Source of the DNA: Escherichia coli
Lineage (GTDB): Bacteria > Pseudomonadota > Gammaproteobacteria > Enterobacterales > Enterobacteriaceae
DNA length: 64,000 bases
Assembly: GCF_003991155.1 (NCBI RefSeq)
Contig: NZ_CP031293.1
Direction: 5' to 3' (one strand)
Position numbers and translations under genes: made by a program. Each line of letters starts with the position of its first letter. Positions within the stretch are counted from its first letter, which is position 1. The notes beneath the pieces were generated by a model that made no database searches, had not been told where the DNA came from, and saw only the letters and a program-made list of their open reading frames with translations. Shown in pieces: positions 25,887 through 46,592 of the stretch.

Positions 25887-26124
25887 TGCTAAGGGTTTTG
25901 TCATCACGCTGGCATTGCAGCAGTATTCCCTCGGCTTTAATTACCGCTCCTTCAGAATAATTTTTATCCTGATAAACGCAGCACTGAGTACAGGGCTGCG
26001 CTGACTGCCCGCCTGAACTGAACACTTCTGGCGGTACGTTTACCTCCACGTCCGGATGATAATGCGGGTTAGCCAGTGCAATTAATGGAAATGCTAATAC
26101 TACGGCGAACAATGCTCGACTCAC
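25852..26124 (-). CDS. ynjH: DUF1496 secreted protein
   Basis: 90-aa ORF with signal peptide; 3' end overlaps nudG 3' end. Confidence 0.75.
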   Translation of the reverse strand: MSRALFAVVLAFPLIALANPHYHPDVEVNVPPEVFSSGGQSAQPCTQCCVYQDKNYSEGAVIKAEGILLQCQRDDKTLSTNPLVWRRVKP

Positions 26125-26359
26125 AGGGAACTCCTTAACGTTATTGTCTCTGCTACTAATAACGGTAGCCGGGCGGCATAACTTTAGCGTCTGAGTTATC
26201 GCATTTGGTTATGAGATTACTCTCGTTATTAATTTGCTTTCCTGGGTCATTTTTTTCTTGCTTACCGTCACATTCTTGATGGTATAGTCGAAAACTGCAA
26301 AAGCACATGACATAAACAACATAAGCACAATCGTATTAATATATAAGGGTTTTATATCT

Positions 26360-27703
26360 ATGGATCAGACATATTCTCTGGAGTCATTCCTCAACCATGT
26401 CCAAAAGCGCGACCCGAATCAAACCGAGTTCGCGCAAGCCGTTCGTGAAGTAATGACCACACTCTGGCCTTTTCTTGAACAAAATCCAAAATATCGCCAG
26501 ATGTCATTACTGGAGCGTCTGGTTGAACCGGAGCGCGTGATCCAGTTTCGCGTGGTATGGGTTGATGATCGCAACCAGGTACAGGTCAACCGTGCATGGC
26601 GTGTGCAGTTCAGCTCTGCCATCGGCCCGTACAAAGGCGGTATGCGCTTCCATCCGTCAGTTAACCTTTCCATTCTCAAATTCCTCGGCTTCGAACAAAC
26701 CTTCAAAAATGCCCTGACTACTCTGCCGATGGGCGGTGGTAAAGGCGGCAGCGATTTCGATCCGAAAGGAAAAAGCGAAGGTGAAGTGATGCGTTTTTGC
26801 CAGGCGCTGATGACTGAACTGTATCGCCACCTGGGCGCGGATACCGACGTTCCGGCAGGTGATATCGGGGTTGGTGGTCGTGAAGTCGGCTTTATGGCGG
26901 GGATGATGAAAAAGCTCTCCAACAATACCGCCTGCGTCTTCACCGGTAAGGGCCTTTCATTTGGCGGCAGTCTTATTCGCCCGGAAGCTACCGGCTACGG
27001 TCTGGTTTATTTCACAGAAGCAATGCTAAAACGCCACGGTATGGGTTTTGAAGGAATGCGCGTTTCCGTTTCTGGCTCCGGCAACGTCGCCCAGTACGCT
27101 ATCGAAAAAGCGATGGAATTTGGTGCTCGTGTGATCACTGCGTCAGACTCCAGTGGCACTGTAGTTGATGAAAGCGGATTCACGAAAGAGAAACTGGCGC
27201 GTCTTATCGAAATCAAAGCCAGCCGCGATGGTCGAGTGGCAGATTACGCCAAAGAATTTGGTCTGGTCTATCTCGAAGGCCAACAGCCGTGGTCTGTACC
27301 GGTTGATATCGCCCTGCCTTGCGCCACCCAGAACGAACTGGATGTTGACGCCGCGCATCAGCTTATCGCCAATGGCGTTAAAGCCGTCGCCGAAGGGGCA
27401 AATATGCCGACCACCATCGAAGCGACTGAACTGTTCCAGCAGGCAGGCGTACTGTTTGCACCGGGTAAAGCGGCTAATGCTGGCGGTGTAGCAACATCGG
27501 GCCTGGAAATGGCGCAAAACGCTGCGCGCCTGGGCTGGAAAGCCGAGAAAGTTGACGCACGTTTGCATCACATCATGCTGGATATCCACCATGCCTGTGT
27601 TGAGCATGGTGGTGAAGGTGAGCAAACCAACTACGTACAGGGCGCGAATATTGCCGGTTTTGTGAAGGTTGCCGATGCGATGTTAAGCCAGGGCGTGATT
27701 TAA
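26360..27703 (+). CDS. gdhA: NADP-specific glutamate dehydrogenase
   Basis: 447-aa ORF; GGGKGG active-site region, Glu/Leu/Phe/Val dehydrogenase family. Confidence 0.95.
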   Translation: MDQTYSLESFLNHVQKRDPNQTEFAQAVREVMTTLWPFLEQNPKYRQMSLLERLVEPERVIQFRVVWVDDRNQVQVNRAWRVQFSSAIGPYKGGMRFHPSVNLSILKFLGFEQTFKNALTTLPMGGGKGGSDFDPKGKSEGEVMRFCQALMTELYRHLGADTDVPAGDIGVGGREVGFMAGMMKKLSNNTACVFTGKGLSFGGSLIRPEATGYGLVYFTEAMLKRHGMGFEGMRVSVSGSGNVAQYAIEKAMEFGARVITASDSSGTVVDESGFTKEKLARLIEIKASRDGRVADYAKEFGLVYLEGQQPWSVPVDIALPCATQNELDVDAAHQLIANGVKAVAEGANMPTTIEATELFQQAGVLFAPGKAANAGGVATSGLEMAQNAARLGWKAEKVDARLHHIMLDIHHACVEHGGEGEQTNYVQGANIAGFVKVADAMLSQGVI

Positions 27704-27710
27704 GACAATT

Positions 27711-27744
27711 GTGCCGGATACAGCGCAAACGCCTTATCCGGCCA
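27711..27744. repeat. REP-like palindrome downstream of gdhA (GTGCCGGATACAGCGCAAACGCCTTATCCGGCCA)
   Basis: Inverted GCCGGAT...ATCCGGC arms as in REP elements. Confidence 0.55.
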
Positions 27745-27779
27745 TAAAAATCTTCAGTATCAGATGGTTGAAAGAACCT

Positions 27780-29735
27780 TTATATTATCACTCCATTGCC
27801 CGCCTCTTCTGATGGCGGGCTTTTTTTCGGCGCTCTCTTGCGTGTCGAATCCTTTTTCTTCCCTTCTCCACCGCCGGGAACCATTATTCCCCGAAACTGC
27901 CTTACCGACGTGCGCTTTGCCTGATCAATCAACTGGTACAATGTCCCCACCAGCGGCTGCATAAAGTCCTGATAGCGACACTGCTTTTCGCTGATTTGCG
28001 TCAGCACCGATTCCCAGTGCGCGGTCATGTCCGGTCGCGTCGCCATCTCTGGCAGCGAATGGAATAGCGCTTTTCCGGCGTCGGTGGAGTGGATATAGCG
28101 CCCTTTTTTGGTCAGGAAACCACGCTTGAACAACAGTTCAATAATCCCGGCACGGGTTGCTTCTGTCCCCAGACCATCGGTCGCACGAAGGATCTTTTTC
28201 AGATCTTTGTCCTGCACAAAGCGTGCGATCCCGGTCATCGCCGAAAGCAGTGTTGCATCGGTAAAATGGCGCGGCGGCTGGGTTTGCCGCTCTACCACTT
28301 CACCTTTTTCGCACAACAATTCATCGCCTTTCGCCACCACAGGCAGCGGCGTGCCGTCGTTTTCTTCATCGCGTTCTTTGCTGCCTAACAGCGTGCGCCA
28401 GCCTGCTTCAGCAAGAAAACGGGCTTTAGCGACAAATTTGCCTTTGGCAATGTCCAGTTCGATAACACACTTGCGGAACACCGCATCCGGGCAGAACTGC
28501 ATCAAGTACTGACGGGCAATCAGGTTATAGACCTTCGCTTCGTTCTCCGTCAGGTTGATCGCAGAACTCCGTGCGGTCGGAATGATGGCGTGGTGCGCAT
28601 CGACCTTTTTGTCATCCCAACAGCGGTTGCGTATATCTGGATCTACCACTGGCTGCGGCAACAGATCCGGTGCATGAACGCTGATGGCATTCATCACTGC
28701 GTGGCGTCCGGCAAAATGTTCTTCTGGCAAATAGCGGCAATCGGAACGCGGATAAGTGATTAGCTTGTGCGTTTCGTACAGCTTCTGGCAGATATCAAGC
28801 ACGTTCTGCGCGCTCAGACCAAAACGTTTAGCCGCTTCAATCTGCAACGCCGAAAGCGAAAAAGGAAGCGGCGCGGATTCTGATTCCCGTTTATCGTTAT
28901 AGCTGGTGACAATAGCTGGTTGACCACTAATGCGGTTAACCACATGCTCCGCCAGTGGACGATGTAACAAGCGCCCTTCTTCATCCTGGTACGGTTCACA
29001 CGCTTCGCTCGGTTGCCAGATAGCGGTAAACCGCTCATCGGCAGGTGTCACGATATGTGCTTTGACTTCAAAGAAATCTTTCGCCACGAAGTTTTCAATC
29101 TCTTCGTCGCGGCGCACCACCAGTCCGAGTACGGGCGTCTGCACGCGTCCCACGGAAAGTACGCCCTGATAACCGGCATTGCGACCGAGAATGGTGTAAG
29201 CGCGGGTCATATTGATGCCGTACAGCCAGTCAGCTCGGGCTCGCGCCAGTGCAGAAACGCACAGCGGTACAAACTCGCTATTGGAGCGAAGACGATCGAT
29301 CGCCCGCTCAACCGCCTGCGGGTTCAGGTCGTTTATCAAACAACGCTGTACCTGCTGGCGCTTTTCCGGTGCCAGTTGCAGGTAGTCCAGCACTTCATCC
29401 ACCAGCAGTTGCCCTTCGCGATCCGGGTCTCCGGCGTGAACGATTTCGCTGGCTTCATGCAGGAAGCGTTTGATGACATTAAGTTGTTTAGTCACGGAGG
29501 GTCGGGGCTGTAATTGCCACTTTTCCGGGACAATTGGCAAATCCGCAAGATTCCAGCGCGCATAGCGGCTGTCGTAGGCGTCTGGCTGCGCCTGCTCAAG
29601 CAGGTGACCGATACACCAGGTCACCACCTGACCATTACCGCACTCGATAAAGCCATCGCCTTTCCGGTGCGGTTTAGGCAGGACATCAGCAATGGCGCGC
29701 GCCAGACTCGGTTTTTCGGCAATAAACAACCGCAT
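27780..29735 (-). CDS. topB: DNA topoisomerase III
   Basis: Start at [23 protein letters not shown]...; Lys-rich C-terminal tail; 651 aa by my count. Confidence 0.9.
27798..27827 (+). terminator. intrinsic terminator-like hairpin GCCCGCC-TCTTCTGAT-GGCGGGC plus T7 run, positioned as gdhA terminator and lying inside the last codons of topB on the other strand
   Basis: 7-bp GC-rich stem followed directly by TTTTTTT. Confidence 0.6.
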
Positions 29736-29739
29736 TGAA

Positions 29740-30783
29740 TTAACGGATCTCAACCATGGCACGACCGCCGCGCGCTGGCACCAGTTCGCCAATCGCCGTC
29801 AGTTCAATGCCAAACTCGGCGGCTGTAGCTTTGACCTCATTTTCTGCTTCCGGCATGACCGCCAGCAGCAAACCGCCAGAAGTTTGCGGATCGCACAGCA
29901 GATCGCGCACTTCACGCGGCATTTCACCCATCAGATGACCGTAGCTGGCAAAGTTACGTTCGGTGCCGCCAGGCACTGCGCCCAACTTAATGTACTCTTC
30001 AACCCCAGGCAATTTCGGGATCGCGTCATAGTCGACGCGCGCCTGCACACCTGCGCCCTGACACATTTCGCTTAAATGCCCCAGCAAACCAAAACCCGTA
30101 ACGTCGGTCATCGCTTTTACGCCTTCGATGTTGGCAAAGGACGCGCCTGCGATGTTCATCCGGCACATCACTTCCGTCGCCAGTCCCTGATGTTCTGGTT
30201 TAAGCAGTGATTTTTTCTCAGCCGTGGTAAGAACGCCAATCCCCAGCGGCTTCGTCAGGAACAGTTTGCATCCGGCTTGTGCGGTACTGTTTTTCTTCAC
30301 CCGCTCGGTCGGTACGATCCCCGTTACCGCCAGACCAAAAATCGGCTCCGGCGCATCGATGGAGTGACCGCCAGCCAGCGCAATACCCGCCTGACGGCAT
30401 GCATAGCGTCCACCTTCGGTCACTTCGCGGGCAATTTCCGGGGAAAGTTTGTTAATCGGCCAGCCGAGGATCGCAATCGCCATAATTGGTTTGCCGCCCA
30501 TTGCGAAGATATCGCTGATGGCGTTAGTCGCCGCAATGCGGCCAAAATCGAAAGGATTATCAACGATCGGCATAAAGAAGTCGGTGGTACTGATAACGCT
30601 GGTGCCATTGCCCAGATCGTATACCGCCGCATCGTCGCGGGTTTCATTACCCACAAGCAAATTCGGATCAACAAACTTCGCCTGCTCACTGTGCAGGATG
30701 GTTTCCAACACTTTTGGGGAAATTTTACAGCCGCAACCAGCGCCGTGGCTGTATTGGGTCAAACGAATCGAGTTCTCGCTCAT
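29740..30783 (-). CDS. selD: selenide, water dikinase (selenophosphate synthetase)
   Basis: Start at [21 protein letters not shown]..., 347 aa; 4-bp gap to topB start. Confidence 0.95.
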
Positions 30784-33480: not shown

Positions 33481-33512
33481 GTGGCCGACAGATCGTCGGC
33501 CACATTTTTTTT
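33481..33512 (+). terminator. rho-independent terminator after sppA (GTGGCCGAC-AGAT-CGTCGGCCAC plus T8)
   Basis: Perfect 9-bp stem plus U-run. Confidence 0.8.
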
Positions 33513-46561: not shown

Positions 46562-46592
46562 AAAAAGAGCGACTTCGGTCGCTCTTTTTTTT
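46562..46592 (+). terminator. rho-independent terminator after gapA (AAAGAGCGAC-TTCG-GTCGCTCTTT plus T-run)
   Basis: 10-bp stem with tetraloop and T8. Confidence 0.85.

Follow-up and report, generated by a model that had tools for sequence, protein, structure and literature searches.

The convergent ends of gdhA and topB raise the question of whether a single stretch of DNA can serve as the transcription terminator of one gene and as codons of the gene on the opposite strand, and whether such an RNA signal has shaped the encoded protein. The window analyzed here is a stretch of 64,000 nucleotides from Escherichia coli (contig NZ_CP031293.1). In this window, gdhA, which encodes the 447-aa NADP-specific glutamate dehydrogenase, occupies positions 26360-27703 of the + strand, as defined by its open reading frame and by the RefSeq annotation of a matching strain, and topB, which encodes DNA topoisomerase III (651 aa plus the stop), occupies 27780-29735 of the − strand, as defined by its open reading frame and RefSeq annotation. 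It is probable that a hairpin located within the last codons of topB is a conserved, unidirectional Rho-independent (intrinsic) terminator of gdhA that is overprinted on the tail of TopB, termination in vivo being predicted from the sequence.

The hairpin within the last codons of topB

On the + strand, the putative terminator is composed of a 5′ arm, GCCCGCC (27798-27804), a loop, TCTTCTGAT (27805-27813), a 3′ arm, GGCGGGC (27814-27820), and a run of seven T residues (27821-27827), which corresponds to the U-tract and adjoins the stem without a spacer. The stem consists of seven perfect G/C pairs. Folded alone (27798-27820), the hairpin has a ΔG of −16.3 kcal/mol, and it is the local minimum-free-energy (MFE) element of the gdhA 3′ region (z = −5.1 for a 147-nt stretch); two further pairs within the 9-nt loop leave a tetraloop in the MFE fold. 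A 9-nt loop is larger than the loop of most canonical terminators.

On the − strand, the T-run reads AAA AAA A and encodes K637, K638 and the first base of S639, whereas the 3′ arm covers the last two bases of S639, P640 and the first two bases of P641, the loop covers the third base of P641, S642, E643 and the first two bases of E644, and the 5′ arm is part of the codons E644-A645-G646. The hairpin and T-run together correspond to codons K637-G646 of the 651-codon CDS (S639-G646 for the hairpin alone) and are located 18-48 nt before the topB stop, within the last 15 codons; the last Pfam domain residue of TopB is 593, and the hairpin therefore lies in the non-domain C-terminal tail. The original prediction, that a GCCCGCC/GGCGGGC hairpin with a T7 run on the plus strand shares its bases with the end of TopB on the minus strand, is borne out by the sequence, by its fold and by the − strand reading frame, which ends at 27780. 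The hairpin also lies downstream of gdhA as had been proposed, but the distance from the gdhA stop (reading frame 26360-27703) is 94 nt and not 95 nt. The same proposal had considered that the true topB stop might lie upstream of the hairpin; the RefSeq annotation of a strain with 100% identity to a 901-base query (27400-28300) places the stop at the same site and gives a product of 651 aa.

The hairpin was missed by the first terminator scan because the loop limit of that scan was 8, and a custom scan was hence used. A strict motif (a perfect stem of at least 7 bp with at least five G/C, a loop of 3-10 and at least six T in seven) was found at four loci on the two strands of the window, compared with 0.13 on average across 100 dinucleotide shuffles, and the hairpin-plus-T motif is not a product of chance. 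The G/C-rich stem-loop has its U-tract directly 3′ and is in the same sense as gdhA, no terminator precedes it, and no second terminator-like site with a hairpin and T-run was found within 200 nt 3′ of gdhA. The sequence features of a terminator are thus all present and are wholly contained in the topB CDS, in agreement with the earlier suggestion that one stretch is both a putative terminator and coding sequence. A second, weaker hairpin (27826-27849, + strand), followed by TCCTTTTTCT, is also situated in the topB tail and gains stability from a strain-specific T at 27845; it may be either a back-up terminator or fortuitous. Two + strand open reading frames listed mechanically across the hairpin site (27764-27964 and 27796-27924) are without any support.

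The 3′ UTR of gdhA additionally contains, between the stop codon and the hairpin, a REP-type palindrome (27713-27743), which was identified by its hairpin fold and is not followed by a T-run. An Rfam search of 26000-30000 (E ≤ 1) returned no family at the hairpin; adjoining it was a sub-threshold match to the REP-derived naRNA4 (27697-27743, E = 0.003, below the gathering score). Similar to REP and BIME palindromes, the topB-embedded hairpin is a stable palindrome 3′ of gdhA that is able to protect an mRNA 3′ end, but it differs from them in sequence, showing no similarity to the REP consensus, and in being followed by U7 and located in coding sequence. The REP of gdhA in K-12 was reportedly described by Becerril et al. 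in 1985 and by Merino et al. in 1987.

As in bidirectional intrinsic terminators, a single hairpin is found between the ends of two convergent genes. However, the 5′ flank on the + strand, CACTCCATT, contains no A-tract, and there is therefore no U-tract in the topB sense. The hairpin can terminate gdhA only, because in the topB sense A7 precedes it and no U follows it. No intrinsic terminator in the topB sense was found on the − strand within 480 nt, and a bidirectional terminator is ruled out. The element resembles the canonical intrinsic terminators of E. coli in its G/C-rich stem-loop followed by seven U residues, its location 3′ of a highly expressed gene, its single direction and the conservation of its orthologous position in related genera, and differs from them in lying wholly inside a convergent CDS, in its rather long 9-nt loop and in a sequence that is also constrained by the reading frame of the opposite strand.

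Pairing and codon choice in the gdhA sense

The sense in which the hairpin is kept can be judged from 26 Escherichia, Citrobacter, Salmonella, Pseudocitrobacter, Kosakonia and Enterobacter taxa with a close convergent gdhA. In these taxa, 98.9% of the stem cells are paired in the gdhA sense vs. 91.8% in the topB sense, and 14 of the 16 variant stem cells are G·U wobbles that are valid in the gdhA sense only and would be A·C mismatches in the topB sense. The wobble cells number 14 at four stem positions in the gdhA sense and one in the topB sense, an asymmetry based on few independent events (four stem positions vs. one). The RNAalifold consensus is −14.7 kcal/mol in the gdhA sense and −8.3 kcal/mol in the topB sense, and the T-run is T6-T8 in all 26 taxa. 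Amino-acid changes in the stem codons, from Ala to Thr in Salmonella and from Gly to Ser in two Citrobacter, retain pairing in the + sense, and one loop codon has been lost from Enterobacter sp. BIGb0383, in which both arms are kept. Classical covariation was not found, as no pair has changed on both sides in the 26 taxa; the shuffle control for covariation is uninformative, the 3′ arm being almost invariant. With so little variation in the stem, the evidence for the structure lies in the wobble asymmetry and in the conservation of synonymous sites, not in covariation, and it indicates that selection keeps the hairpin in the gdhA sense.

These comparisons also bear on the possibility that the hairpin acts within the topB mRNA, 13 codons before the stop, either as a ribosome pause or frameshift signal after A7 or as a message-protecting barrier. 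The run of A7 followed by a stable G/C hairpin has a superficial likeness to a slippery run with its stimulatory structure. In the topB sense, however, 15 of the 182 stem cells are unpaired (14 of the 15 as A·C mismatches), RNAalifold loses the central pair and no U-tract follows the hairpin; read in the topB frame, CCG AAA AAA AGC does not form an X XXY YYZ heptamer, and the hairpin follows it without a spacer. Moreover, K-12 has an intact, functional topB although the element has decayed there. A −1 frameshift signal formed by A7 and the hairpin is ruled out by frame, spacing and the topB-sense mismatches, and a function in the topB message of any of these kinds is very improbable.

Codon choice follows the structure closely. 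The synonymous sites of the stem and T-run are almost frozen relative to the rest of topB (P about 5e-6, from resampling of matched sites elsewhere in topB of the same taxa), and the six structure-relevant third positions (AAA, AAA, AGC, CCG, GCG and GGC) show one disrupting state in 156 cells. Codon-matched resampling, in which the backgrounds for AGC and GGC were small (3 and 7 sites, respectively), yielded none among 500,000 resamples as low as observed; codon bias, considered as a cause of the frozen sites, leaves the pattern unexplained with these backgrounds. Both lysine codons (K637 and K638) are AAA in 26 of 26 hairpin-bearing taxa, and the first of them is AAG in five taxa in which the tail hairpin has decayed. 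The loop codons vary freely, with all four TCN codons and several CCN codons represented. A comparison of TopB C-termini had been proposed as a check, and it gives third positions that are nearly invariant in the stem and T-run and variable in the loop; together, the gdhA-sense wobbles and the frozen synonymous sites support the original idea that the TopB tail may be shaped by the hairpin.

Could the palindrome instead be a by-product of a conserved TopB motif, KKSPPxxEAG, written in the commonest codons, with no RNA structure under selection? AAA, CCG, GCG and GGC are common codons in E. coli, AAA codons by themselves give T-runs on the opposite strand, and no double compensatory change was seen, all of which would agree with such an origin. 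Nevertheless, matched synonymous sites elsewhere in topB of the same taxa are far more variable, and so are the loop codons of the identical motif. In the stem, nearly all variation, amino-acid changes included, leaves gdhA-sense pairing intact, and GAG is retained even though it is the rarer Glu codon. The motif also decays where gdhA is not adjacent, and beyond the stem the TopB tail shows poor conservation from genus to genus. A by-product of protein conservation is, on this evidence, distinctly improbable.

Distribution and natural loss of the hairpin

The convergent arrangement of gdhA and topB is the commonest in Enterobacteriaceae (68 of 80 loci), and gdhA is within 160 nt in 57 of the 68 convergent loci. 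The strongest site with a hairpin and T-run is wholly inside topB in 32 of these 57 close convergent loci and wholly intergenic in only three. A strong site is absent from 16 of the 57 taxa with a close convergent gdhA, and such a terminator is therefore not indispensable. Pluralibacter carries an unrelated strong hairpin with a T-run within its own TopB tail, which, judged from its sequence, is apparently an independent solution. The intergenic length ranges from 18 to 147 nt between genera and is often only 18-100 nt in the clade. Neither the length nor the sequence of the 3′ UTR upstream of the hairpin is conserved between genera, and the REP comes and goes.

In E. coli, the convergent arrangement is present in 1522 of 5426 complete genomes (~28%), and the hairpin and T7 are identical in six aligned sequences of the convergent type (the window, four sampled strains and ETEC4071). 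At least three cassettes occur at the gdhA/topB junction, which is polymorphic in this species. In K-12 and O157, ynjI is located between gdhA and topB, and strain 536 has an island at the junction and a replaced topB tail; the junction islands carry ynjI or Hsp70/SEL1 genes. The 3′-end segment of topB that carries the terminator (27780-27980) is exchangeable and varies between haplotypes, with 66-82% identity to K-12/O157 and 49-81% identity to strain 536, compared with at least 97% further in. In the K-12/O157 tail, a change of AGC to AGT breaks one pair, and the fold is weakened to −7.5 to −10.7 kcal/mol. Klebsiella spallanzanii lacks an adjacent gdhA; in this species, an arm and the T-run are both broken, and a true A/T-flanked hairpin is present 3′ of topB. 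The hairpin is thus degraded or absent where gdhA is not adjacent (K-12/O157, 536 and K. spallanzanii). K-12, the strain behind most E. coli 3′-end maps, lacks the convergent adjacency of gdhA and topB.

The polymorphism of the junction, with its three or more cassettes, would be compatible with a function of the inverted repeat at the DNA level, for example, as a recombination or integration target that explains the islands (ynjI and Hsp70/SEL1). However, the boundary of the exchanged segment is around 27960-27980, approximately 150-180 nt further into topB than the hairpin, and the strand-specific wobble pattern is unexpected for a site in duplex DNA. Furthermore, IS1397, the mobile element that has inserted here, in strain ETEC4071, used the REP in the gdhA 3′ UTR instead of the hairpin. 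Integration at the hairpin is ruled out by the position of the cassette boundary, and a DNA-level site in general is scarcely credible.

Predicted termination of gdhA and its consequences

In the proposed mechanism, a polymerase moving past gdhA would cross the 94-nt 3′ UTR with its REP and then meet the all-G/C 7-bp stem and U7, where the gdhA transcript would be released ~125 nt past the stop codon, i.e., 40-48 nt inside the convergent topB frame. The TopB tail, which is non-domain and lysine-rich, would provide the T-run on the opposite strand through its AAA codons, and the signal would be written into the tail with KK as the U-tract, SPP as the 3′ arm and (E)AG as the 5′ arm. Purifying selection on the RNA structure would then limit both the synonymous and the amino-acid choices in these codons. 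The likely benefit would be that gdhA transcription is kept from running antisense through the topB-selD operon, and a protected 3′ end for gdhA mRNA would probably be a further one. A point against this reading is that trimming could leave the upstream REP as the 3′ end of the mature mRNA. We infer that transcripts end at the hairpin in vivo and, likewise, the reason for which those ends are selected. A search of the literature found no 3′-end, Term-seq or Northern data for this haplotype, Salmonella or Citrobacter.

It is possible, although rather unlikely, that the gdhA-sense hairpin and U7 are kept mainly as an RNA 3′-end module and not simply as a polymerase stop, acting as a stabilizer of gdhA mRNA or as the Hfq-binding end of a gdhA 3′-UTR-derived RNA perfectly antisense to the topB tail; in the antisense form, gdhA and topB-selD would be a convergent excludon, with topB expression reduced when gdhA is expressed. 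Selection on gdhA-sense RNA fits a module of this type as well as it fits plain termination, and U7 reaches the seven or more T residues given for the terminators of Hfq-binding sRNAs (PMC5558911). With no intrinsic terminator found for topB within 480 nt, the transcripts of the two genes have to share at least about 48 nt. Overlapping terminators are a frequent feature of convergent excludons in E. coli and were present in 146 of the 165 that ExcludonFinder reported in MG1655 (PMC12288877). The gdhA/topB pair resembles these excludons in that the predicted gdhA terminator is inside the topB transcription unit, so that the transcripts would overlap when both genes are on. It differs from them in that the overlap described in that work is between 3′ UTRs, whereas the predicted gdhA terminator is in the codons of the neighbor; in addition, the mapped strain MG1655 has ynjI between the two genes, and for gdhA and topB the overlap of transcripts and any mutual repression are predictions from the gene arrangement. 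Against a module of this kind, the part of the 3′ UTR that precedes the hairpin differs from genus to genus, which leaves no conserved seed beyond the topB codons. The combination expected of an sRNA, a conserved seed with a processing site or an internal promoter, was not found: a scan found no promoter-like site between gdhA and the hairpin, Rfam has no family there, and the literature search returned no mention of a gdhA-derived sRNA.

A further proposal, which is unlikely, is that the embedded terminator does more than stop transcription and ties gdhA to the selD-topB operon as an obligatory sense/antisense pair. Strong gdhA transcription (ammonium assimilation) would then lower the output of TopB or SelD via polymerase collision or via RNase III cleavage of a duplex of at least 48 nt. 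If so, E. coli lineages with ynjI or the Hsp70/SEL1 island would have uncoupled the two genes and changed the C-terminus of TopB. In a weaker form of the proposal, the gdhA 3′ end with its U7 tail would be a regulatory RNA bound by Hfq.

Read as a gdhA terminator overprinted on topB, the locus shows clearly how an RNA signal on one strand restricts the evolution of the protein tail encoded on the other, and the evidence is within the sequences themselves, in wobbles confined to one sense, in frozen sites beside free synonymous sites and in losses when the neighboring gene has moved. Terminators overlapping convergent genes are a class already known, to which gdhA/topB adds one documented example. 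K-12 is not a model for the gdhA/topB locus, and synonymous recoding or C-terminal tagging of topB in E. coli of the ST131/EC958 type, Salmonella or Citrobacter would probably destroy the gdhA terminator.

The gdhA hairpin within the topB tail

The NADP-specific glutamate dehydrogenase gene gdhA (26360-27703, + strand, ORF call) is followed on the + strand by a stem with the arms GCCCGCC (27798-27804) and GGCGGGC (27814-27820), which encloses the loop TCTTCTGAT (27805-27813) and leads with no gap into a run of seven T (27821-27827). The original prediction had placed this hairpin and T-run inside the final codons of the convergent DNA topoisomerase III gene, topB (27780-29735, - strand, 651 aa; ORF call and RefSeq annotation), and the sequence, the ORF and the RefSeq stop all confirm it; the hairpin also lies downstream of the gdhA stop as claimed, at a measured gap of 94 nt rather than 95 nt. 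The DNA is from E. coli. Strain 2016C-3878, in which the RefSeq topB has the same 651 aa and the same stop, matches the region 27400-28300 at 100% identity; of 5426 complete E. coli genomes, 5425 show at least a partial match to it. On the - strand hairpin and T-run read AAA AAA AGC CCG CCA TCA GAA GAG GCG GGC and together encode K637 K638 S P P S E E A G646, after which N G V I I and the stop complete TopB. Because the Pfam topoisomerase domains stop at residue 593, the hairpin falls in the C-terminal tail of TopB, where the AAA lysine codons place T-runs on the opposite strand and are thus a ready source of U-tracts.

The hairpin has a folding energy of -16.3 kcal/mol and also forms as a stable local structure when the gdhA 3′ region is folded. 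Four loci on the two strands of the 64 kb pass a strict scan (perfect stem of at least 7 bp with at least 5 G/C, loop of 3-10, at least 6 T among the 7 bases that follow), against a mean of 0.13 in 100 dinucleotide-preserving shuffles; the remaining three are at 33481-33503 (+), 46565-46586 (+) and 5874-5855 (-). A terminator scanner whose loop limit is 8 misses the site for that reason alone.

A single REP-type palindrome (27713-27743) lies in the stretch from the gdhA stop to the hairpin; it carries no T-run and matches the REP-derived naRNA4 family below threshold. Strain ETEC4071 has an insertion of an IS1397-family element (L003:1101-2449) at this REP. A second hairpin, TTCGGCGC-TCTCTT-GCGTGTCGAA then TCCTTTTTCT (27826-27849, + strand), comes just past the T-run, also within topB, and is improved by a strain-specific T at 27845 (TopB Pro to Thr), where other E. 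coli alleles have G and a poorer stem.

No further hairpin+T site is found in the 200 nt downstream of gdhA, no A-tract precedes the hairpin on the + strand, and no intrinsic-terminator-like site for topB is present on the - strand at 27300-27780, within 480 nt past its stop. Since both the A-tract and such a topB site are lacking, only gdhA transcripts can be targets of the hairpin, and overlap between the two transcription units is unavoidable. Given the lack of a topB site, topB transcripts probably either extend antisense into gdhA or need Rho.

Probable selection on the gdhA-sense RNA

In an alignment of 26 taxa with the hairpin and a close convergent gdhA, 98.9% of the cells for the seven stem pairs hold a standard pairing in the gdhA sense (RNA read from the + strand), against just 91.8% in the topB sense. 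Fourteen of the cells that pair in the gdhA sense, at four stem positions, carry a one-sided change to G.U, which in the topB sense is an A.C mismatch. RNAalifold gives -14.7 kcal/mol and 7 pairs for the former, and -8.3 kcal/mol and 6 pairs for the latter. Pairing in the gdhA sense is kept even where the protein changes, at the stem codons GCG->ACA of Salmonella (Ala to Thr) and GGC->AGC of two Citrobacter (Gly to Ser), and in one Enterobacter both arms survive the loss of a loop codon. Classical covariation is absent from this alignment, with no stem pair changed on both sides. A hairpin that works in the topB sense is highly improbable, and that the inverted repeat serves as a DNA-level site is hardly credible.

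Synonymous sites are constrained as well. The six structural third positions (in AAA, AAA, AGC, CCG, GCG and GGC) carry a stem- or U-tract-breaking base in 1 of 156 cells, against a mean of 0.18-0.36 disrupting states per site at matched synonymous sites elsewhere in topB of the same taxa. Resampling of the matched sites gives P of about 5e-6, and with codon-matched backgrounds, of which those for AGC and GGC are small, none of 500,000 resamples is as low. Within the motif the loop serine, by contrast, is written as any of TCA, TCG, TCT and TCC; CCA, CCT and CCG all occur at the loop-side proline. It is quite improbable that the hairpin is only a side effect of the protein motif together with codon usage.

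Exchange and decay at the gdhA/topB junction

Tail types were counted by the 60-base topB tail among 5426 E. coli genomes. The window type (1522), with gdhA and topB directly convergent, has an intact hairpin (-17.5 kcal/mol), whereas in the same 60-nt fold it is broken in the K-12 (2233; -7.5 kcal/mol) and O157 (1259; -10.7 kcal/mol) types, both of which have ynjI between the two genes. The damage in the K-12 type consists of AGC->AGT in the 3′ arm and a differing 5′ arm, and the O157 hairpin is damaged likewise. The strain 536 type (271) has a wholly different TopB tail without the hairpin, and its topB is neighboured by an Hsp70-family gene and a SEL1-repeat gene. The hairpin and T-run are identical in all six aligned convergent-type sequences (the window, four sampled strains and ETEC4071), and the frequent one-base variation of the 60-base tail, ATA/ACA (I650T), falls outside them.

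The last ~200 nt of topB are part of the exchanged segment: over this stretch K-12/O157 are 66-82% and strain 536 is 49-81% identical to the window, compared with at least 97% further in. Comparison of 27704-27980 with K-12 (L002) and two other E. coli haplotype loci (L084, L085) shows an exchangeable cassette of this topB end, the spacer and an optional island; the island consists of ynjI in the K-12/O157 types and of the Hsp70-family and SEL1-repeat genes in the strain 536 type. The cassette accounts for several TopB C-termini within the E. coli population. An uncultured Pseudocitrobacter MAG (L008:3556-3603) has tail codons that depart from the K-12 ones (L002:2476-2523, KKSPPADEVGSGAIA) at only 3 synonymous sites in 48 nt, against about a dozen between K-12 and the window allele; this likeness hints at an old shared allele or inter-genus transfer.

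The signal decays where gdhA has ceased to abut topB. AGC->AGT, carried by the K-12 and O157 types, is found in none of the 26 convergent taxa. Klebsiella spallanzanii, without an adjacent gdhA, has AAG AAA TCC CGG in place of AAA AAA AGC CCG, and its tail hairpin and T-run have decayed; a separate long, A/T-flanked, bidirectional-looking hairpin lies 3′ of its topB stop. Three other taxa with the related tails KKKPP, KKRPP and KKSPP lack the hairpin, all with AAG as first lysine codon and two with gdhA at 215-319 nt. Kosakonia cowanii, with gdhA just 104 nt off, is a partial exception.

Putative embedded terminators in other genera

Among 80 loci, one genome per species, gdhA is convergent on topB in 68, with a gap of at most 160 nt in 57. 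Of the strongest hairpin+T sites past gdhA in these 57 loci, 32 lie wholly within the topB CDS, three span the topB stop, three lie in the spacer with a T-tract extending to topB and three are confined to the spacer; 16 loci have no site above thresholds. Homologues of the window hairpin occur in 25 of the 57 taxa (Escherichia, Citrobacter, Salmonella, Pseudocitrobacter, Kosakonia and one Enterobacter). In Escherichia albertii NBRC 107761 (L005) the topB frame ends about 27 codons early, so that the homologous hairpin and T-run lie outside the CDS; its stem has a central mismatch (-7.9 kcal/mol). Two Pluralibacter loci (L047, L049) have an unrelated strong hairpin (about -22 kcal/mol) and T-run at different codons of their own TopB tails, coded in L049 by AAG...PAA codons. 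This apparently independent embedded gdhA terminator suggests that the solution arose more than once.

With the anatomy, in-CDS position, conservation, strand asymmetry, synonymous-site constraint and decay once gdhA moved established here, the hairpin is likely to be an intrinsic terminator of gdhA that works in one direction only, is overprinted on the variable tail of TopB and has been kept across the clade by selection on the gdhA-sense RNA. It is rather unlikely that the main role of this RNA is that of a stabiliser, of an Hfq module or of an antisense partner to topB. From these comparisons we infer that gdhA transcripts end at the hairpin in vivo; such termination would shield topB and its operon partner selD from antisense transcription, provide a stable gdhA 3′ end, or both.

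Terminators inside a convergent neighbour's transcription unit have ample precedent: of the 165 convergent excludons that ExcludonFinder reports for E. coli MG1655, 146 have overlapping terminators (PMC12288877), and overlapping 3′ UTRs are widespread according to reviews (PMC7821165). A literature search found no description of this gdhA/topB terminator, probably because K-12 lacks the arrangement. The hairpin is thus a fresh example of an already known class, terminators that overlap a convergent gene; its significance is modest, and its main value is that the dual constraint is clearly legible from the sequences.
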